Positions 3,907 to 14,345 of a stretch of 14,345 nt of DNA are shown here, piece after piece. Within the stretch, counting starts at the first letter, position 1; each line of letters starts with the position of its first letter. This stretch comes from a bacterium (GTDB taxonomy: Bacteria > BMS3Abin14), in contig CP070698.1 of the NCBI GenBank assembly GCA_020349685.1, positions 1,595,851 through 1,610,195 on the forward strand, written 5' to 3'. The position numbers were made by a program, and so were the translations under genes. Below the pieces are notes generated by a model that saw nothing but the letters and a program-made list of their open reading frames with translations, was not told where the DNA came from and ran no database searches.

Positions 3907-3937
3907 TTGACAGAACCAGTATCTGTTGTTAGATATT
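3907..3937 (+). promoter_or_regulatory. Putative sigma70 promoter with a short dyad overlapping the -35 and spacer
   Basis: Perfect TTGACA at 3907-3912 after an AT-rich tract, imperfect -10 candidates (TGtTAGATAT, 3927-3936), and ACAGA-N7-TCTGT at 3910-3926. Confidence 0.5.
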
Positions 3938-3982
3938 CGCAGTTGCCTTTGGAGGGGCGAGGAACTGTTTCGGAGGAGTATC

Positions 3983-4408
3983 ATGAGGAAATATTTCATC
4001 ATCGGTTCGGTTGTGGCCTTTGTCCTGATAGCTGTTTCGGTCTTCGCTCTCCAGGCTAAAAGCGGAAAGGTCGCAGTGGCTCAGGAGGTCCAGCCCCTGG
4101 CTGCCTCCGCATCCGGTTCCGGCTGCGGTGCCGGGGGCTCCGGTTGCGGTGCTGCCGGTTCGGTAGGCTGCGGCGGCGCTGCAGGAGGCTGCGGCGGCGA
4201 GGCGGTGGACCCGGCTGAGGCCAGGATCCGCCAGGACAAGATCATCGCTTACCTGCAGGACTACTACACGACCAGATTGGGCTATCAGAGTGTCGAGGTA
4301 AAGATCGACGACTTCGGCTGCCACCAGGAGGCTGTCGTTTCCAGTGCCGGCAAGGTCATCGACAAGCTCTCCGTGAGCGGGAACACGATAACGAAGATAG
4401 AAGGATAA
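3983..4408 (+). CDS. Exported or membrane-anchored protein (141 aa) with a Gly/Cys-repeat linker and a DFGCH motif; possibly metal-binding
   Basis: Strong RBS GGAGGAG before ATG 3983, preferred over the ORF-track start at 3926. Signal-like N-terminus MRKYFIIGSVVAFVLIAVSVFA, repeat SGCGAGGSGCGAAGSVGCGGAAGGCGG, and a C-terminal domain containing DDFGCHQEA. Confidence 0.8.
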   Translation: MRKYFIIGSVVAFVLIAVSVFALQAKSGKVAVAQEVQPLAASASGSGCGAGGSGCGAAGSVGCGGAAGGCGGEAVDPAEARIRQDKIIAYLQDYYTTRLGYQSVEVKIDDFGCHQEAVVSSAGKVIDKLSVSGNTITKIEG

Positions 4409-5804: not shown

Positions 5805-6164
5805 ATGAGCAAGCAGGAGATTCAAAGAAAAGAGGGCGGCATGCCGGTCAGCGCGGCCGTCGACCTGGCGGGCCTGGTTGAATACGGCGAGGGGGCAGTG
5901 GTCAGCAGAACCCTCATTCAGGCTTCTGTGGGTACGGTAACGGTTTTTGCCTTTGACGAGGGACAGGGACTGAGTGAACACTCCACCCCTTACGATGCCC
6001 TGGTGCAGGTCCTCGACGGCAGTGCCGAGATAACCATAGGGGGGGAAATGGTTGTCGTTTCGGCGGGGCAGTCTCTGCTGATGCCCGCCGACATTCCCCA
6101 CGCCCTCCACGCACCGGAACGGTACAAGATGCTCCTTACGATGATAAGGGAAAGGAAGGGGTAA
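5805..6164 (+). CDS. Cupin domain protein
   Basis: RBS AGGAGG. Single cupin barrel with FAFDEGQGLSEHSTPYDALVQVLDG and LLMPADIPHAL motifs; divergent from ald. Confidence 0.88.
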   Translation: MSKQEIQRKEGGMPVSAAVDLAGLVEYGEGAVVSRTLIQASVGTVTVFAFDEGQGLSEHSTPYDALVQVLDGSAEITIGGEMVVVSAGQSLLMPADIPHALHAPERYKMLLTMIRERKG

Positions 6165-6187
6165 GAAACAAGATATGGACCTTCGAA

Positions 6188-6325
6188 GTGTCTAGGGTCT
6201 GGTTCTAGTGTCTGGATACAATGAAGATTTCAAGAGCTTTACCAGAACTAGACACTAGAACTAGAAACTAAATTATACTAGGACTAGGACTAGGACTAGG
6301 ACATTGATTTAGACTAAGACCAGGA
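6188..6325. repeat. Second CTAG-rich palindromic element plus a (CTAGGA)x4 hexamer run
   Basis: Left arm gtgtctagggtctggttctagtgtctgga (6188-6216), right arm accagaactagacactagaactagaaacta (6241-6270), then actaggactaggactaggactaggac (6277-6302). Shares accagaactagacac with the 3648-3723 element. Confidence 0.85.
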
Positions 6326-6333
6326 TATGAACC

Positions 6334-6765
6334 ATGCCCAAAGACCTGTCCCGTCACATACGCTTCCTCGAGGATGAGGTCCCCTTTAACCGCCACATGG
6401 GTTTTGAAGTGGTGCACTGCGAAGAGGGCTTTGTCAGGGTCCGGATCCCTTTCAGACCCGTGTTCATTGGAGACCCCAGGCGGCCGGCGCTTCACGGCGG
6501 CATCTTTTCCGCGGTCATCGACGCCTGCGGCGGCCTGGCCGTCTGGACCCTTTTCGATGTCGAGGACCTCATATCAACAGTGGACATGAGGGTAGACTAC
6601 CTGAGACCCGGACCGGCCACCACGATCATCGCCGAGTCCAGGGTCGTGCGCATGGGTAACCGTGTCAGCGTCGTCAACACAGTCGTTTATCCCGAAAACA
6701 GAAATGAGGAGATCCTGGCCGAAGGACGTGCCGTGTACAACACGCGGAAGGCAAAGGCCGACTGA
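6334..6765 (+). CDS. PaaI-family hotdog-fold thioesterase
   Basis: 143 aa with PFNRHMG, LHGG-x6-D (LHGGIFSAVIDACGG), STVDMRVDYLRPG and RMGNRV motifs. Confidence 0.9.
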   Translation: MPKDLSRHIRFLEDEVPFNRHMGFEVVHCEEGFVRVRIPFRPVFIGDPRRPALHGGIFSAVIDACGGLAVWTLFDVEDLISTVDMRVDYLRPGPATTIIAESRVVRMGNRVSVVNTVVYPENRNEEILAEGRAVYNTRKAKAD

Positions 6766-6849
6766 ACCACGTGACTCTTTCCGTTCACCATTCCCACCAG
6801 GAAAACAATAGTTTTTAAATTGTCCCTGTTTTCAAGTTCTTTTGTTCAC

Positions 6850-6904
6850 TTGAAGTGCACCGGTTAGTGTGCTAAAAGTAACCGTAACTGATAATTGACG
6901 GTTA
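6850..6904 (+). promoter_or_regulatory. Putative promoter and operator of the cytochrome operon
   Basis: AT-rich spacer with TTGAAG (6850-6855)-17 nt-TAAAAG (6873-6878) preceded by TGn, immediately followed by the dyad TAACCGT-N12-ACGGTTA (6879-6904). Confidence 0.45.
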
Positions 6905-7027
6905 TGCTTTTTACATGTGGATGGCGAAGGGGGATGGCTGAATCGTGCAGCTAGAAGGAGCCTTCATCAAATGCTCAGCCTCTCTTCTTTTCGTTTACCT
7001 GCGTTCTGAGAAAGGGGTTTAGGGGCC

Positions 7028-8029
7028 ATGCCGCGGTTGATCTCGAGGGTCCTGGTTAGGGTTGTCGTCTGCGGACTCATCCTGGCGGCAGCCGGAACGG
7101 TTCTTTCCTGCGCTTCGCTCAAGTCAAGCCGTCCCATGGTTCCCATGAGAGAGTACGAAAAGGTCCTCGTGGGCTCCCTCTTCGCAGATTACGTGGGGAA
7201 TGAGGCCTGCCTTTCCGCCTGCCACCAGCACGATCAGACCGCCCAGTTCCTCCAGGAGAGCGTCCATGGTCATCAGAAGGTCGAGGGTACCGAGATGCCC
7301 CTCGTCAACTGCGAGACCTGCCACGGCCCGGGGAGCGAGGCCATCGAACAGGATTTCGTCAACAGGAACGCCCGGTGCGACACCTCCAAATTCATTCCCC
7401 TTAAAAGCCTTCCCGCCGCAGCCCTTTCCATGCTCTGCCTCAAGTGCCACAGCTCCTACTCCATGGCCAACATGCAGTATTTCCCCTTCAGCGATCACGC
7501 GCTGGGTGAGGTCAGCTGCTCGGATTGCCACAAGCTCCACAAGAGCTCCGAGCAAAAGCTCAAAGGCGCCGATATCAGCAAGCTGTGCATGAGCTGTCAC
7601 GACACCGTGCGGGCTGATTTCTCCTTTTCCAACAGGCACCCCGTTCCGGAGGGCAGGATGGTCTGCACGGACTGTCATGAACCCCACGGCAGTCAGGCCC
7701 CCCGCGGGCTCGTCGCCCTGGATCAGAAGGGGCTGTGTGTCAACTGCCACGGACAGGTCGTCGGCCCCTTCGCCTGGGAGCACGCCGACGTCACCGACGA
7801 ATGCACGACCTGCCATTCGCCCCACGGGTCCGTGTTCGCCGACATGCTCAAGATCCAGCAACCGTTCCTGTGTCTCCAGTGCCACTCGGGACACTCCGAT
7901 CCCGGCACTCCGGACTCGCCTTCGCCAATCGTCAAGGGAGCCTTTTACACACGCTGTTCCAACTGTCACTCTCAGATACACGGTTCCGATACGAGGGGAC
8001 CGCATCCGGGCAGCGGCCTGATCCAGTAG
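7028..8029 (+). CDS. DmsE/MtrA-like decaheme c-type cytochrome, probable lipoprotein
   Basis: Nine CXXCH motifs (CETCH, CLKCH, CSDCH, CMSCH, CTDCH, CVNCH, CTTCH, CLQCH, CSNCH) plus one CX3CH (CLSACH). MtrA-type signatures CHGPGS, HPVPEG.M.C.DCHEPHGS, GPFAWEH, PFLCLQCH and CHSQIHGS. Lipobox-like VLSC at Cys28. Confidence 0.92.
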   Translation: MPRLISRVLVRVVVCGLILAAAGTVLSCASLKSSRPMVPMREYEKVLVGSLFADYVGNEACLSACHQHDQTAQFLQESVHGHQKVEGTEMPLVNCETCHGPGSEAIEQDFVNRNARCDTSKFIPLKSLPAAALSMLCLKCHSSYSMANMQYFPFSDHALGEVSCSDCHKLHKSSEQKLKGADISKLCMSCHDTVRADFSFSNRHPVPEGRMVCTDCHEPHGSQAPRGLVALDQKGLCVNCHGQVVGPFAWEHADVTDECTTCHSPHGSVFADMLKIQQPFLCLQCHSGHSDPGTPDSPSPIVKGAFYTRCSNCHSQIHGSDTRGPHPGSGLIQ

Positions 8030-8059
8030 GGCGATCGATCCTATCAGCTGGAGGGTCAA

Positions 8060-9943
8060 ATGAGGGGAAAGAGGTTAACAGTACTGACCGCCGCTTTCAT
8101 TACCCTTTCCATCTTCCTCGGTGGGACGGCCTTTGCCGCTCAGGCCGAGGAGCAGGAGGAAGGGTGCGAGGACAGGGCCCAGAGCGGGTACGGGCTCTGC
8201 GTCGGCTACGACGAGCTGTCCATCGACGGTGGAGGCGAGACGATCCTGCCCTACAGGCACCTCGATTCCCATGCACTGTTAAAGGCCCATTACAGGAAAC
8301 CGCTGTGGGACGGACGCCTGGACCTCAGCTTCAGTTACGAGGGGGAGGACTACTACAAACTGGATAGTGAATTTTACGGTGTGACCGATACGGTGACCTT
8401 CAGGTCCCAGAAGTTCGTGAGGAATTTAGAGCACCAGAACCTGCCAGGCCCTTCGAGCACCGCGGGGTCACCCCTTTACTGGTCCGAGGACCTCGATCCG
8501 GGAGATTCCTACCACGTGGACCTCCAGGAGCATTACGCGAGCTTCAAATACAAGTGGCACACCTACCCGGCCAACGTTTCGATAGCCGTCAGACAGTACG
8601 TCGCGGAAGGACAAAAGCAGCAGCTTTTCCTCAATGAGAACTGCACCACCAACTGTCACGGCCTTTCCCAGACGAGAAAGGTCAAAACAACCACGGAGCA
8701 GGTCTTCCTCAACGGTACAACGCATCTGGGGCTCGTGGACGTTTCCTACCACTACAAGGGCACGCAGTTCACCGATGACATGGCGGACCCGGTCTACGCT
8801 TTCGGTACCATCTCGAGCTTCGCGGGGACGAGGGATGTCCACAACACCTATCCGGACATGGATTCGACGGAGCAGCTCGTAAGTGTCAGCACCAACCACA
8901 CGGGCCGCTTTTCCGGACTCTTCGGTCTCGGCACCGGGGAGAGGGAGAACCTGGATTCGGATGTTTCGGAAAAGTATCAGCAGTTCCTGGGCCGGTTCCT
9001 CTGGCGCCCCAATGAGACAGTGGCGGTCTTCCTCGATTCCAAGCAGAAATATCAACAGGATGACAGGCCGCCGGCATCCCTGGCTTCGGACAGGTTGGCC
9101 GACGGATCCCCCCTGCGTTACGGAACTGTCCTGAACCGGCACAAGCTCACGGTCAGCTACTATCCCATAGACATCCTTGATCTAAAAGGGGAGTACGCCC
9201 TCACCGACACGGAGCGGGAGGACAACGAACTGTGGGGACTTCCCGAAGATACCTCCTCCAGCGAATGGCGCCTGACGGCCCGTATAAGGCCTGGACCAAA
9301 ACTCAAGTTCAAGGCGGACTATACCGACAGGTCCACGGACAACCCCACTTACCGGTCGTCTCCCACCGAAAGCCGCAAGCTGCACCTTTCAGGCCAGTGG
9401 GTCCCGGCAGGCGGGCTGTGTATCGATGCCGACCTCAGAGACTTTGACGACGAGAACAGCGACAGCGGCCAGGTCAGCGACCGGCAGATCCTGGGGGCCG
9501 CTGTGACCTATACCCCTCCAAGCCCCGTTTCTCTGGCCGTCCGGGTTTACAGGTTCACCAACGACATTTCGGCCGATCTCACCTTCGCCGACACGGCCCC
9601 CACACCCATCACCGATGAGGAGGTCCCCTACAAGGCCGAAGGCACGCAGTACCTGCTGCAGGCTGTCTGGAACGCCAGCAAGAAGCTCCAGCTGACCGGC
9701 CAGTACAGCTATCTCCAGGCCGAAGGGGCCTACGACGCGGATATCGCCGGTTTTGCCGACGTGGAGAGCTACTCGGGACTGGATGCCGTCCAGAAGGAAT
9801 CGTCCCTGGACCTTCAATATACCTTCAAGGAAGGTTTGTGGCTTTCCGGGCGCCTGGCTCAGCTGTCCTATGAGGACAGCAAAGGCGGTTTTCCGGACGA
9901 GGATGTCAGTGAAGTCTCAGCTTCGCTGACGAGGAAGTGGTGA
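8060..9943 (+). CDS. MtrB/PioB-like outer-membrane beta-barrel (porin of a porin-cytochrome conduit)
   Basis: 627 aa with a Sec signal ending AFA-A, alternating aromatic/hydrophobic strands joined by D/E/S-rich turns, and a C-terminal aromatic beta-signal (VSASLTRKW). Directly follows the decaheme gene. Internal CTTNCH. Confidence 0.82.
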   Translation: MRGKRLTVLTAAFITLSIFLGGTAFAAQAEEQEEGCEDRAQSGYGLCVGYDELSIDGGGETILPYRHLDSHALLKAHYRKPLWDGRLDLSFSYEGEDYYKLDSEFYGVTDTVTFRSQKFVRNLEHQNLPGPSSTAGSPLYWSEDLDPGDSYHVDLQEHYASFKYKWHTYPANVSIAVRQYVAEGQKQQLFLNENCTTNCHGLSQTRKVKTTTEQVFLNGTTHLGLVDVSYHYKGTQFTDDMADPVYAFGTISSFAGTRDVHNTYPDMDSTEQLVSVSTNHTGRFSGLFGLGTGERENLDSDVSEKYQQFLGRFLWRPNETVAVFLDSKQKYQQDDRPPASLASDRLADGSPLRYGTVLNRHKLTVSYYPIDILDLKGEYALTDTEREDNELWGLPEDTSSSEWRLTARIRPGPKLKFKADYTDRSTDNPTYRSSPTESRKLHLSGQWVPAGGLCIDADLRDFDDENSDSGQVSDRQILGAAVTYTPPSPVSLAVRVYRFTNDISADLTFADTAPTPITDEEVPYKAEGTQYLLQAVWNASKKLQLTGQYSYLQAEGAYDADIAGFADVESYSGLDAVQKESSLDLQYTFKEGLWLSGRLAQLSYEDSKGGFPDEDVSEVSASLTRKW

Positions 9944-9944
9944 A

Positions 9945-10901
9945 ATGGGTCTTTTAGCGGATTGGAAAAAACGAACTGCCCTGGCGGCGGGGCTGTCGGT
10001 CATGCTCCTTGCTATCTGGTTCCCCGCTCCTTCCTTTGCCAGCATGGTGGGCCTCATCCTTCCCAAGGACTGCGCTTTCAGTCCTGATGTCAAGGACAAG
10101 TTTTCCATGCTGTTGAGGGAAAAGGGGATCATGGATGCCGATATTCTGCTGCAAAGACCTGCGTCTGACAAGGTCTCGCGGCTCAACAGCATGCGCAAAT
10201 TCCTGGCCATCGGTGCCGACGTCATCGTGGTCTGGGGGAGCACCTCCATCACGGAGATAGCGGGGGAGGCCGGTAGAACGCCCATCGTTTTCGTGGGTGT
10301 GTGGGACCCTGTCCAGAGCGGTATCGTCCAGAGTCTTGAAGCCCCGGGCAGGAACCTGACCGGGGTCATGGGCAAAACCTCGACGGCCTTCCTTATTGAC
10401 AACGTCATCGAAACCAGCGGGGCCAAGACCATCGGTGTCGTGTACCACTCCGATAATGTGGACAGCCAGGCGCAGTACGATGAGATCGTGAAAACCGCCC
10501 CCTCCAAAGGGCTGGACCTTCCGACCGTGGACCTGAGCGACGTGTCCATGGACCAGGCGTCAGGAGTGCTCCAGCCGGCGCCGTTCCTTTACCTGGCTCA
10601 GGGGTGCAACGTTGAATCCGGGATCTTCGAGGGCCTCGCCAGGATGAACAAGCCAGCCGCCACCCAGAACCCGGGGGTCACGGGCGGTGGTGTCATCTTC
10701 ACGCTCGCTCCGGACATGGAAGAGACGATCGCCATCATCTCCGACATCACGGGACGCATTCTGAAGGGTGAAAAACCGGGGGCCATACCGGTGGCAAGGA
10801 ACAAGAAGATCAACTTCACCATCAACGTTGGTGAGGCGCAGCGGCTGGGGGTGAAGATACCATTCGGAGTTCTCAACCGCGGGACCGAGGTCATACGTTA
10901 G
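9945..10901 (+). CDS. ABC-type periplasmic substrate-binding protein (ABC_sub_bind-like), no transporter genes adjacent
   Basis: Signal peptide (…APSFA) and family motifs PIVFVGVWDPVQSGIV, PGRNLTGV, IGVVY, RILKGEKPGAIPV and INVGEAQRLGVKIP. Starts 1 nt after the porin stop. Confidence 0.88.
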   Translation: MGLLADWKKRTALAAGLSVMLLAIWFPAPSFASMVGLILPKDCAFSPDVKDKFSMLLREKGIMDADILLQRPASDKVSRLNSMRKFLAIGADVIVVWGSTSITEIAGEAGRTPIVFVGVWDPVQSGIVQSLEAPGRNLTGVMGKTSTAFLIDNVIETSGAKTIGVVYHSDNVDSQAQYDEIVKTAPSKGLDLPTVDLSDVSMDQASGVLQPAPFLYLAQGCNVESGIFEGLARMNKPAATQNPGVTGGGVIFTLAPDMEETIAIISDITGRILKGEKPGAIPVARNKKINFTINVGEAQRLGVKIPFGVLNRGTEVIR

Positions 10902-10909
10902 GGGTAGAT

Positions 10910-13036
10910 ATGATCAATTTCACCAGACTGTCCCTGAAGGTCAAGGCTGCTGTTTTCATTGCGGTTATCCTGGTGCTCGTGATCGGAGTCACGACGATGA
11001 TCTTTTCGTCGGAGGTCAACAAGCGCCTGGAAAAGGCCCTCCTTGCGACAACCACCCTGGTTGGGCAGAGTCAGGTCGACGAGATCAAGAAGACCGTTGA
11101 CATGGGGATCTACCTTTCCGAGCTCGACGGGCTGTCCATTCAACTCACGCAGGTGGTCGAGCAGGACGCCACCCTCGGGTACATATACGTCGCCGACAAA
11201 AAAGGTTCCATGCTGTATTTCAGCGAAGGGATGCCGGAGTGGGTGCGTGGACAGGTCCGGGTACCGGAGGCTTTCCTGGAGGATACCCAGACGCCGGTGA
11301 CCGACCTGATCCGCTCCGGAGGGGAAGGGTTCTACCAGATCTCCATCGCCATCGATTCCATGGGCACCCTGGAGGGATACCTTGCCATCGGTCTCAAGGA
11401 AAGGGTGATCTCCCAGCAGCTCAAGCAGATCAACCGGCGCATGGTGCTCATCGGGCTCCTGAGCTTCCTCGTGGCCACCCTCCTGATCATCGTCTTCGTC
11501 AACAGACTGATCAGCCTCCCCCTCACGAGCCTGGCGGGCACGGCCAGGCAGATCTCCGACGGTAACATCGTGGAGCCTGACCTGGATCCGCGCCACGATG
11601 AGATCGGGGAGCTGTCCGGCGCCTTTGCGGTCATGGCCAGGGAGCTCACTGCCATGATAGGAAGGTTTTCGGAAACATCCTCCAGCCTCCAGAGCTCTTC
11701 CGTGGAACTGGCCTCCGTTGCGGGCAACCTCACCAGATCCTTCGGGAAACAGATGGAAACCCTCGAGGGGGTTGTCACGGCCATCCAGGAGATGGACGGA
11801 CTGGCCCAGGACCTTTCCAGACAGGCCATCAACCTCAGCGACACGGCCAACGAATCCTCCGCCTCCATCACGGAATCCACCTCGGCCATCGGGGAGATCA
11901 ACACCAACATGGCCGAGATCAACGAGGCCATCGAGAACATCACCTCCTCCATCCTGCAGATGTCCGCCACCTTCGGCGAGCTGGCCGAGGGAGCCGATGA
12001 GACGGCGAAGCTGGGGGAAGAGTCCATGGACGCCGTTGCCAGGATCAACGAGGGCGTCAAGAACATGGAAAAGATGGTGGACCAGTCCAAAACCCTGGCC
12101 GAGGATCTGCGGGTCAACGCCCAGGACATAGGGTCCAAGGCGGTGCGGGAAACCCTTCAGGGGATCCTTTCCATCAAGGAGGACGTCCAGAATTCAGAGC
12201 AGGCCATGAAGCTCCTTAACGAGAAAGTGGACAGCATCGGAGACATCGTCACCGTCATCGAAGGCATCGCCGACCAGACGAACCTTCTTGCCCTCAACGC
12301 CGCCATCATCTCGGCCCAGGCCGGGGACGAGGGCAGGAGCTTTGCCGTGATCGCCTCCGAGATCCGGGAGCTTTCAGCCAGCACCACCGAGTCCACGAAG
12401 AAAATATCCTCGGTCATCCAGTCGGTCCAGCAGGAAGCCAGGAGTTACACCAACTACGTAAAAAGGGTCAGTCAGAGCGTGGAGGAGGGCTATAACCGGG
12501 GCCTCCAGGCCACAGAGGCTCTCGACAAGATCGTGGAGTCGGCCAACGACTCGGCCAGGATGTCGGGAGAGATCTCCCAGGTGACGCGGGAGCAGGCGTC
12601 GGCCAGTGAGATGGTGGCCAGCAGCATCGAGCACTTCACCAAACGGGCCGATGTCATCAGGCGCGCCACCTCGGAAGAGGCTCAGACGGCGAAGTTCATC
12701 CGGGAGTCCATCGAGAAGGCCAAGGGAATGGTGGAAAAGGTGTACCGGTCCACCGAGGAGCAGAACAAGACGAGCCAGATGATCAACGACATGGTCATCA
12801 AGGCCGAGGAGATCGCGGGAAGACTTCAGCAGGCCACAGAGAGAGAAAAGGACCTGGCCATGTCCATCACGGGCTCCGTGGAGTCCCTGAAAACCCTGAG
12901 CCAGGAGAATTTTGGAATGGTGAAAAGCGTCGACTCGTCCTCGGAAATGCTCACCAACCTGTCTTCTTCCCTGGGCAAGGAGTTGGGGCGGTTCAAGATA
13001 GGTGACGGCGGAAGAACAAAGGACGAGGAAGCATAA
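10910..13036 (+). CDS. Methyl-accepting chemotaxis protein (2 TM, periplasmic sensor, HAMP, extended signalling domain)
   Basis: TM1 ~13-32, ~145-aa periplasmic domain, TM2 from ~178, HAMP (PLTSL…DEIGELSGAF), and hairpin tip IADQTNLLALNAAIISAQAGDEGRSFAVIASEIRELS. No C-terminal NWETF-type pentapeptide. Confidence 0.95.
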   Translation: MINFTRLSLKVKAAVFIAVILVLVIGVTTMIFSSEVNKRLEKALLATTTLVGQSQVDEIKKTVDMGIYLSELDGLSIQLTQVVEQDATLGYIYVADKKGSMLYFSEGMPEWVRGQVRVPEAFLEDTQTPVTDLIRSGGEGFYQISIAIDSMGTLEGYLAIGLKERVISQQLKQINRRMVLIGLLSFLVATLLIIVFVNRLISLPLTSLAGTARQISDGNIVEPDLDPRHDEIGELSGAFAVMARELTAMIGRFSETSSSLQSSSVELASVAGNLTRSFGKQMETLEGVVTAIQEMDGLAQDLSRQAINLSDTANESSASITESTSAIGEINTNMAEINEAIENITSSILQMSATFGELAEGADETAKLGEESMDAVARINEGVKNMEKMVDQSKTLAEDLRVNAQDIGSKAVRETLQGILSIKEDVQNSEQAMKLLNEKVDSIGDIVTVIEGIADQTNLLALNAAIISAQAGDEGRSFAVIASEIRELSASTTESTKKISSVIQSVQQEARSYTNYVKRVSQSVEEGYNRGLQATEALDKIVESANDSARMSGEISQVTREQASASEMVASSIEHFTKRADVIRRATSEEAQTAKFIRESIEKAKGMVEKVYRSTEEQNKTSQMINDMVIKAEEIAGRLQQATEREKDLAMSITGSVESLKTLSQENFGMVKSVDSSSEMLTNLSSSLGKELGRFKIGDGGRTKDEEA

Positions 13037-13088
13037 CGCCACTTTTCGGGCCCGGTGACGGCCTGGCCCAACAAGGGAGCGGTGCTCA

Positions 13089-14345
13089 ATGAAGGTTCTC
13101 GACAGATCGATGAGGGTCCTGTTTGCAGCCTTGATACTGGCCATGTCCGCGTGTGGCAATCCCCTGAAAAACAGCAGTACGGACGATGTCTCCTTTACGC
13201 CCCAACCCCTTGGTATGGACTACTGCTACGACTGCCACAATAGACCGGGTTCCACGCAGGCCTACGAACAGGTGTTTGAGGAGTGGGTCGTCAGCAGGCA
13301 CTCCAATTTCGACTATTACGACACCTCGACTGGCAACCACGTGGCGCTGGACCCCTTCAACCTGGGGAGCTACTCTTACTCCGATGTTACAGGGTATCCC
13401 AGCTACTACTCCAACCCCTCCATCTATTCGAACAATTGCCGTCCCTGCCACATGGGGGCCGACGACGGGGGGTGGATCCTTGATGCCAACGCAGGTGGAA
13501 CCATCTTTGCCACGCCAAACCTGGGTGAGCAGTACCGTTTCCTCATCGACTGCGAAGGCTGCCACGTGAGCGGGCAGGGACACTTCGGCAGGTCCTCACC
13601 CCCTGAAGTTGCCATCCCGGCGTTTCACGAATGCACGGAATGTCATCCTCCCACGGCCGATTTCATGATCCTTCACCCCGCCTTTGCGGGGGCGGACCAT
13701 TTCGACCATCACGGGCCCGATTCAGCACGGACGTGGTTCGACGGTATTTTGGCCATCAACGACCTCCTTAGTTTCGGGGACCCGGCTCCTATTGACATCA
13801 CGTCGATGGTCCTCGGCTCCCAGTCTTTTGACGCCTACGTCATCAGCGCGACGTGGCTTGCCGCCAATGGAGGTTCCTGGATCTTTGATCCCCACGAGAC
13901 CATCAACGACAGCCATTACCAGGGCATCTGGATCACCAACGTTCCCAACGAAATGGTGGTTTACGAGGTTCCCACCTCCAAGTTCGGCTACGTGAACCTG
14001 GACAACGACTCCCCCAACACCGGGATGGCCAACGCCGATTCCCCGGACGCTTGTACCGCCAGCTGCCACGACGCCCACCAATTCGACCTCGCTATAAATG
14101 AGCAGTGGTACCACGGGGCCCATCACCCCAATATCCAGGGTCCTCTGGGAACGACCACAAGCCGGGGCCGGATCGTGGTCGATGTGCCCGGACCCGCCAA
14201 CTGGGGGGCGGTGGACCACGGTTTTAGCGCCAGCTGCTACAGGTGCCACAATGCCATGGGATTTGCCGAGGTGGCCCCCGGATACGGGGATGCCGTCCAG
14301 ACCCCGACTGGATCGGACGGTTTCATCACCTGCAACGCCTGCCAT
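13089..14345 (+). CDS. Outer-membrane multiheme c-type cytochrome lipoprotein, OmcB/OmcC-like, 3'-truncated by the window edge; not in the ORF track
   Basis: Hand translation from ATG 13089 (RBS GGGAG) gives 419 codons with no stop: MKVLDRSMRVLFAALILAMSAC-GNP (lipobox, Cys22), then CYDCH, CRPCH, CEGCH, CTECH, CTASCH, CYRCH and CNACH. Context motifs EEWVVSRH, CEGCHVSGQGHFG, INEQWYHGAH and CYRCHNAMGF resemble OmcB-type cytochromes. Confidence 0.88.
   Translation, partial: MKVLDRSMRVLFAALILAMSACGNPLKNSSTDDVSFTPQPLGMDYCYDCHNRPGSTQAYEQVFEEWVVSRHSNFDYYDTSTGNHVALDPFNLGSYSYSDVTGYPSYYSNPSIYSNNCRPCHMGADDGGWILDANAGGTIFATPNLGEQYRFLIDCEGCHVSGQGHFGRSSPPEVAIPAFHECTECHPPTADFMILHPAFAGADHFDHHGPDSARTWFDGILAINDLLSFGDPAPIDITSMVLGSQSFDAYVISATWLAANGGSWIFDPHETINDSHYQGIWITNVPNEMVVYEVPTSKFGYVNLDNDSPNTGMANADSPDACTASCHDAHQFDLAINEQWYHGAHHPNIQGPLGTTTSRGRIVVDVPGPANWGAVDHGFSASCYRCHNAMGFAEVAPGYGDAVQTPTGSDGFITCNACH

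Follow-up and report, generated by a model that had tools for sequence, protein, structure and literature searches.

Why would the genes of an apparent outer-membrane electron conduit stand together with those of a solute-binding protein and a chemoreceptor? This question is raised by a 14,345-nucleotide stretch of contig CP070698.1 (GenBank assembly GCA_020349685.1; hereafter the window, which means the whole stretch at its full length) from an uncultured bacterium. From position 7028 to its end, the window carries five co-directional open reading frames (ORFs), all on the + strand, which encode a decaheme c-type cytochrome, a beta-barrel, a periplasmic solute-binding protein (SBP), a transmembrane methyl-accepting chemotaxis protein (MCP) and a multiheme lipoprotein cytochrome. 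How metal-respiring bacteria find insoluble electron acceptors, and stay on them, is poorly understood: the known sensory link, Esn, is genetically unlinked to conduits, and so is energy taxis in Shewanella. The original prediction for this locus described a porin-cytochrome conduit with an embedded sensing pair. Our analysis places the conduit among the MtrAB-type systems, points to the SBP as a long-standing associate of such conduits and to the MCP as a later arrival, and leads us to propose, tentatively, that the SBP signals through the MCP.

Cluster layout and conduit identity

The order given for the five genes in the original prediction agrees with our ORF map, as do the gaps of 30, 1, 8 and 52 nt between them. 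A purine-rich, Shine-Dalgarno-like stretch lies 5' of each of the five starts, and the GC content is uniform across the cluster (0.58-0.61). The genes had also been said to lack terminators between them, and promoters of their own would have spoken for separate expression; a scan of positions 6000-14345, based on consensus matches only, placed neither a terminator-like nor a promoter-like site in any of the four junctions. Over this whole region, the same scan returned 4 terminator-like sites (shuffle mean, 7.0) and 2 promoter-like sites (shuffle mean, 2.3). Taken together, the gaps and the junctions free of such consensus sites make it likely that the five genes are co-transcribed as a single operon.

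The barrel belongs to a small family: E<=0.001 was reached by 32 of 8000 scored candidates, all of them from metagenomes or metagenome-assembled genomes (MAGs). In addition, a genome scan with two barrel motifs, using one genome per GTDB species, yielded 58 stretches, five of which are confirmed relatives (L001 to L005).

The first gene (7028..8029, +) encodes a cytochrome of 333 amino acids (aa) belonging to the MtrA/DmsE family. It scores 243.3 bits against the DmsE-family decaheme model TIGR03508, above the cut-off of 192.2, and its orthologs in L002 to L005 reach 237-265 bits. With 224.3 bits, it stays below the cut-off of 325 for NF041028, the GSU2203/OmcK family. The best match among PDB sequences is 6r2q_A (E 1.4e-41, aa 56-328), a chain that we take to be MtrA; the sequence file labels this chain 'Cystathionine beta-synthase', which looks wrong for a chain of an Mtr complex. 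The protein contains nine CXXCH motifs and one N-terminal CLSACH (CX3CH), and with nine canonical motifs, the protein is a true decaheme cytochrome only if heme is also bound at the CX3CH site. All six orthologs examined have the same motif counts, with CX3CH (CL..CH) as the first heme motif. Likewise common to the six orthologs examined, including those of L001 to L005, is a lipobox-like cysteine following the signal peptide, and the product is thus probably a lipoprotein. Shewanella MtrA is a soluble periplasmic protein.

The second gene (8060..9943, +) encodes a 627-aa protein with a signal peptide and a C-terminal tryptophan, for which no Pfam match was obtained. The MtrB/PioB models PF11854 and TIGR03509 are not reached, and among the related barrels only that of L004 reaches PF11854 (32.2 bits; cut-off, 23). 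Against NF041027, the GSU2204/OmcL family, the protein scores 82.1 bits, which is below the cut-off of 350 and covers aa 19-429 only, while the barrels of L002 to L005 score 93-121 bits. An AlphaFold2 model built on 17 homologs has 26 strands (pLDDT 74, pTM 0.61), and its top PDB match in a Foldseek search is 6r2q_B (E 5.5e-14, TM 0.58), eight orders of magnitude ahead of the second-best match, BtuB (E 1.9e-06). We therefore describe the protein as an MtrB-like, 26-strand outer-membrane beta-barrel.

Within this barrel, codons at 8642..8659 (+) specify CTTNCH (CX3CH; aa 195-200) as part of a NENC(T/A)TxCH stretch. E193, N194, C195, C199 and H200 are conserved without exception in an alignment of 17 barrels, and the CX3CH motif is found in each of the five barrels checked (window and L002 to L005). 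In the model, the motif lies in a low-confidence loop (residues 191-201) between strands 7 and 8. It is a possible heme site, and a heme-bearing porin would be unusual. The barrels of L003 and of P0030-P0032 carry an extra CXXCH at the N-terminus, and 'CXXCH-containing (seleno)protein' is the name given to the related GSU2204 family.

The fifth gene (13089..14345, +) has no stop codon before the window end, and the 419 aa available represent the 5' part of an outer multiheme lipoprotein cytochrome in MtrC-like position. This part includes six CXXCH motifs, one CTASCH (CX3CH), and a lipoprotein-type signal with the lipobox-like sequence 'MSAC'. The full-length counterpart in L002 is 736 aa long, contains 11 CXXCH motifs and scores 47 bits on PF22113 (MtrC/MtrF domain II/IV); it had no match among PDB sequences, and the two outer cytochromes share 27% identity over 185 aa. 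The view that genes 1, 2 and 5 form a porin-cytochrome conduit of the MtrA/MtrB/MtrC kind is borne out by the TIGR03508 score, the matches to 6r2q and the 26-strand fold, and on the strength of these family and model matches the three genes very probably specify an MtrAB-type outer-membrane electron conduit. By family scores, this conduit is nearest to OmcK/OmcL and yet outside both families, as both scores fall below the cut-offs, which makes it a sister family.

The binding protein and the chemoreceptor in related loci

The third gene (9945..10901, +) encodes a 318-aa periplasmic SBP with a signal peptide, which matches PF04392 (ABC_sub_bind) with 87.8 bits at a gathering score of 25.9. Its solved relatives are 3lkv, 3lft and 6hni, and three ligand-bound structures of the PF04392 family hold L-Trp, L-Tyr or L-Phe (PMC10443332). 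The window SBP scores 80.3 bits against the TrpX equivalog model NF041285, far under the cut-off of 390, and its ligand is therefore not inferable.

The fourth gene (10910..13036, +) encodes a 708-aa MCP composed of a first transmembrane (TM) helix, a periplasmic domain, a second TM helix, a HAMP domain (aa 196-247; PF00672, 40.1 bits) and a signaling hairpin (MCPsignal, aa 424-577; PF00015, 133.9 bits). The TM helices are visible in the AlphaFold2 model, and no variation is seen at the hairpin tip among the 19 aligned relatives. The arms of the hairpin, ~227 and ~223 residues around residue 474, correspond by length to ~64 heptads. Receptors of the 64H class are on record for Desulfuromonas, in which motility or matrix production is the presumed role of chemotaxis-like clusters (PMC8235581). 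The periplasmic sensor (aa 35-177; 11012..11440, +) is predicted to adopt a single-Cache (PDC)-like fold: the AlphaFold2 model runs through two helices, two strands, short helices, three strands and a final helix at pLDDT 75-91, and the ESM Atlas lead for this domain is sCache_3_2 (0.95). The corresponding Pfam family, PF17203, is matched by four of 19 MCP orthologs (best E 2.5e-05) and is not matched by the window MCP at E<=10; at the same threshold, the MCP N-terminus had no meaningful match in Pfam and the periplasmic domain had none among PDB sequences.

Is this arrangement peculiar to the window? L002 (MAG bin47) has the identical five-gene order in different flanks, with gaps of 1 nt at both the barrel/SBP and the SBP/MCP junction, at identities to the window of 67% for the decaheme cytochrome, 41% for the barrel, 53% for the SBP and 62% for the MCP. 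In two further MAG records, barrel, SBP and MCP are found on consecutive accessions. Matching lengths of the longest contigs are an indirect hint at more cases: they connect barrel, SBP and MCP matches at 16097 and 13914 nt, SBP and MCP at 8308 and 16363 nt, and barrel and SBP at 3978, 3119, 59084 and 25870 nt. The placement of SBP and MCP genes inside a conduit cluster, as originally predicted, is thus not a one-off. L001 (MAG bin676) shares its upstream synteny with the window, and its SBP and MCP have consecutive accessions, ~700 locus tags away from a partial barrel gene. At 10001-11805 of L001, the similarity to the barrel ends with residue 558, where a 43-residue piece of trkA adjoins in reverse orientation, and the locus contains a run of N; either an inversion that broke in trkA and in the barrel gene or an assembly join would account for this.

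The remaining loci are organized differently. L003, from a 'delta proteobacterium' MAG, encodes a divergent, 867-aa MtrC-like cytochrome followed by decaheme cytochrome, barrel and SBP, and then a Fic gene. In L004 and L005, both from Desulfuromonadales, genes for MlaE, an ABC ATPase and MlaD precede decaheme cytochrome, barrel and SBP, and unrelated genes follow. The Mla-type genes, which specify an MlaE permease, the ATPase and an MlaD/MCE protein of ~360 aa, lie at 5925-8754 of L004 and 5726-8461 of L005, with a gene for an unassigned protein of ~495 aa before them. The neighborhood comparison accordingly supports the original prediction in part: the five-gene order recurs in L002 and the barrel-SBP-MCP order in the two MAG records, but the fetched stretches of L003, L004 and L005 contain no MCP. 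The SBP gene, on the other hand, follows the barrel gene in all four intact related loci (L002 to L005). The most plausible reading of this gene order makes the SBP an ancestral third part of the conduit, and the MCP would therefore be a lineage-specific addition (window, L002, bin676 and the P1S46/RRA32 MAGs).

The relationships of the SBPs are compatible with such a history. We computed a quick IQ-TREE phylogeny from 119 PF04392 rows, comprising five SBPs from conduit loci, 47 close relatives of the window SBP and 67 more distant proteins; four rows outside 250-360 aa were left out, and so was P0084, an SBP joined to a permease domain, which looks chimeric after residue 185 and was set aside. 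In this unrooted tree, which has several long branches, the five conduit-locus SBPs all fall into one clade of 57 rows (SH-aLRT 99), whose other members are the 47 relatives and five proteins of unknown context. The L003 SBP groups with the window SBP clade at a support of 100. This suggests, as support rather than proof, that the conduit-linked SBPs represent a single PF04392 subfamily. Two cysteines, C43 and C221, occur in every one of the 35 aligned members of the window SBP clade, which includes every SBP here known to adjoin an MCP. C43 is missing from the SBPs of L003, L004 and L005 and from P0085-89, and C221 is shared outside the window clade with L003 only.

Of the long proteins among the 150 best matches to a profile of the SBP clade, 20 (372-1532 aa) were examined, and all of these contain tandem PF04392 repeats; one of them, P0209, is joined to the ABC permease domain BPD_transp_2. 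Many of the top matches to the PF04392 profile (P0192, P0198, P0285 and others) are 620-1530 aa long, with two to five tandem PF04392 domains. They could be genuine proteins with several binding domains or artifacts of run-on gene calling.

A proposed signaling route and its rivals

How might the two additional proteins work? In the reading that we favor, the lipoprotein decaheme cytochrome would be threaded into the 26-strand barrel and paired with the outer multiheme lipoprotein, and the operon would add two periplasm-facing proteins to this conduit: an older SBP and, in one uncultured lineage, an MCP placed directly behind it. With or without a small ligand, the SBP would dock on the Cache-like periplasmic domain of the MCP, which would in turn feed a Che-type pathway. 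Building the conduit would also equip the cell with a sense linked to extracellular electron transfer, by which it could steer motility or surface behavior; the bacterium may, in other words, sense something tied to mineral respiration. The gene order, the protein families, the barrel fold, the recurrence of the arrangement and the SBP clade come from the data; co-transcription, the direction and substrate of the conduit, the contact between SBP and MCP, the ligand and the output are what we infer from them.

We favor a route from SBP to MCP because the MCP gene follows exactly after the SBP gene with minimal gaps (8 nt in the window, 1 nt in L002), because the two are still neighbors in bin676 even with the barrel gene interrupted, because the annotated ORFs of the window include no ABC transporter gene, and because the SBPs found with an MCP come from a clade with an invariant residue of its own, C43. 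The juxtaposition of SBP and sensor genes is, moreover, a known signature: SBP genes often adjoin the gene of their sensor (PMC11113362), and SBPs stimulate chemoreceptors and kinases, including sensors of the Cache type (PMC8050422). On balance, a functional tie between SBP and conduit seems fairly probable, whereas signaling of the SBP through the MCP is a tentative proposal to which we give somewhat less than an even chance.

Several observations weigh against this proposal. The MCP need not use the SBP because it has a periplasmic Cache-like domain of its own, to which a ligand could attach without help. Of the four intact related loci, L002 has the MCP, and since the other three keep the SBP without an MCP nearby, the SBP has an MCP-independent role. 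The relatives of the SBP with known structures are transport-related binders of aromatic amino acids (PMC10443332), no signaling domain was found in any of the 20 long proteins examined among the 150 best profile matches, and all homologs come from MAGs or metagenomes. The 'sensing pair' of the original prediction hence survives as a pair of adjacent genes, but the SBP is not simply one half of an MCP system. A complex prediction for MCP aa 35-177 (18-row alignment) and SBP aa 34-318 (35 rows) returned 0.10 and 0.09 at a mark of 0.32, which is no answer, neither for nor against binding.

Nearly as likely as signaling from SBP to MCP are independent roles for the two proteins. The SBP would then be a conduit accessory, which for instance docks on the decaheme cytochrome or the barrel, or holds a small redox-active or metal ligand in the periplasm, and the MCP would sense a ligand of its own through its Cache-like domain, co-transcribed so as to be present in every cell that makes the conduit and never touching the SBP. 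Such a division of labor agrees with the SBP genes that stand behind the barrel in L003, L004 and L005, with the single clade of conduit-linked SBPs, with the complete single-Cache-like sensor and with the lack of signaling fusions in the long PF04392 relatives examined; it fits less well with an MCP gene inserted exactly behind the SBP gene at 8 and 1 nt, with an adjacency that bin676 kept when the barrel was cut elsewhere, and with the Cys43 that marks the SBPs accompanying an MCP. Transport and hitch-hiking are less likely. If the SBP were the binding protein of an ABC importer with its permease encoded elsewhere, the MtrA/MtrB-like pair would reduce or pass on a metal or another substrate, and the MCP would mediate taxis toward this substrate. 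Operons combining DmsE/MtrA and MtrB/PioB genes with ABC ATP-binding and substrate-binding genes are on record, and metal uptake has been suggested for Geobacterales (PMC11492766); amino acid binding by the solved relatives (PMC10443332), the permease fusion in P0209 and the MlaE, ABC ATPase and MlaD genes directly upstream of the trio in L004 and L005 point in the same direction. However, ABC genes are absent from the window ORFs and equally from the scanned ORFs of L002 and L003, and the score of the SBP, at 80 bits against the TrpX cut-off of 390, gives no lead to a ligand. We also know of no MlaFED system that employs a binding protein of the periplasmic-binding-protein (PBP) type, and altogether we regard transport as unlikely.

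A chemosensory SBP-MCP pair unrelated to electron transfer could also have been inserted into the operon within one lineage and been kept there by vertical inheritance alone. All MCP-bearing loci belong to one related set of uncultured bacteria, and synteny can persist without selection; against such neutral hitch-hiking, the gene order is kept at 41% barrel identity and in changed flanks, the intergenic gaps are still minimal, and the SBP is far older, spanning Desulfuromonadales and other lineages, so that we consider this explanation improbable. Just as improbable, at present, is a more specific version of the signaling proposal, according to which the SBP would be a reporter of conduit activity instead of a nutrient binder, with C43 and C221 sensing electron flux or a product and the MCP Cache domain reading the loaded or oxidized state of the SBP. 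The general fold of binding proteins would place C43 behind the first strand of lobe 1 and C221 behind a strand of lobe 2, perhaps on opposite walls of the cleft, where they could form a reversible disulfide or hold a metal ion made or used by the conduit, e.g. Fe(II) or Mn(II). If true, this would amount to a dedicated taxis toward or away from mineral surfaces that senses electron flux or its product.

Genomic surroundings and known systems

The cluster is preceded by a 262-nt region (6766..7027, +) that likely serves as promoter or leader and includes a hairpin. This hairpin, which is followed by a T-run (6883-6906), lies after the gene of a hotdog thioesterase and before gene 1; it could be the terminator of the upstream gene or part of the promoter region of the cluster. 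Its 3' arm is TTGACGGTTATG, and the surrounding stretch is partly conserved in L001. An alignment of the upstream regions of the window, L001 and L002 gave patchy conservation and no nameable promoter. No Rfam family was found at gathering score anywhere in the window, and a search of the leader (6600-7200) returned one noise match (E 0.3) and no riboswitch. Further upstream, the window carries an OYE-like fragment, trkA, trkH, a 160-aa ORF, an alanine dehydrogenase gene on the opposite strand and the thioesterase gene; none of these annotated ORFs is an ABC transporter or che gene. The product of the 160-aa ORF (3926-4408, +) has one N-terminal hydrophobic segment and a low-complexity stretch rich in Gly, Cys and Ala (GSGCGAGGSGCG...), and belongs to no Pfam or NCBIfam family. 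Its counterpart in L001 (5721-6221) is 48% identical and occupies the same place between trkH and the alanine dehydrogenase gene.

With regard to known conduits, the closest structural parallel is Shewanella MtrCAB (6r2q): the window decaheme cytochrome resembles chain A, the barrel fold resembles chain B, a gene for an outer multiheme lipoprotein is present, and MtrB, like the model of the window barrel, has 26 strands. The gene order, in contrast, is C-A-B in mtrCAB and A-B-[SBP-MCP]-C in the window, and mtrCAB to our knowledge includes neither an SBP nor an MCP. The window decaheme cytochrome further differs by its lipobox-like cysteine and a first motif of the CX3CH type, and the window barrel by its invariant CX3CH and by scores below the MtrB/PioB models.

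OmcK and OmcL (GSU2203 and GSU2204) are the best specific NCBIfam neighbors of genes 1 and 2 (NF041028, 224 bits; NF041027, 82 bits). For Geobacter as well as for syntrophic sulfate reducers, OmcKL has been proposed to act as a porin:cytochrome conduit (PMC10553843), and GSU2203 and GSU2204 are up-regulated with hematite or magnetite (PMC4070692). Whereas the window cluster encodes SBP and MCP, the main text of PMC10553843 mentions no substrate-binding protein or chemotaxis, and the literature on GSU2201, GSU2202, GSU2205 and GSU2206 provided no annotation of the neighbors of GSU2203/2204.

Two previously described clusters each contain one half of the arrangement seen here. The Geobacterales operons that combine DmsE/MtoA/MtrA/OmcI with MtrB/PioB include a substrate-binding protein gene, the form seen in L004 and L005, and the Mla genes of these two loci may be the 'ABC transporter' association described for such operons (PMC11492766). 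They differ from the window in that they contain an ABC ATP-binding protein and are read as transport systems, with no chemoreceptor mentioned in the accessible text, while the window has an MCP and an outer cytochrome and lacks ABC genes. Conversely, the mtoDAB(Y)X cluster of 'Ca. Dechloromonas occultata' (2020, bioRxiv 10.1101/695007) includes a predicted MCP gene, MtoY, inside a porin-cytochrome cluster. This cluster is betaproteobacterial and of the MtoAB type, and the available text mentions no binding protein. Each half is thus already known separately from the accessible parts of these two sources; the combination of SBP and MCP inserted in a conduit operon, and the conduit-linked SBP clade, were not found in the accessible literature on porin-cytochromes with MCP or SBP and on PF04392. 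Our comparison flags the PF04392 protein as a candidate third component, so far overlooked, of the MtrAB/OmcKL-like conduits that Desulfuromonadales and further lineages possess, and one that lends itself to genetic tests in cultured relatives.

On the sensory side, SBP-dependent receptors such as Tar-MBP, LuxP-LuxQ, HptA-HptS and CtpL-PstS provide precedents for an SBP that is encoded beside, or works with, a transmembrane sensor, and an SBP can be the ligand of a Cache/PAS-like sensor domain (PMC8050422). The pairing proposed here differs in that the SBP also occurs without the receptor in related conduits; no PF04392 member is listed in the accessible part of PMC8050422. The EsnABCD pathway of G. 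sulfurreducens likewise ties a chemotaxis-type pathway to extracellular electron transfer, and its mutants are defective on electrodes (PMC5585712). EsnA, however, lacks a periplasmic domain, and its gene does not accompany those of a conduit (PMC5585712), whereas the MCP described here has a predicted periplasmic sensor and is conserved in a conduit operon directly behind an old SBP companion, which provides two concrete proteins to test for a signal.

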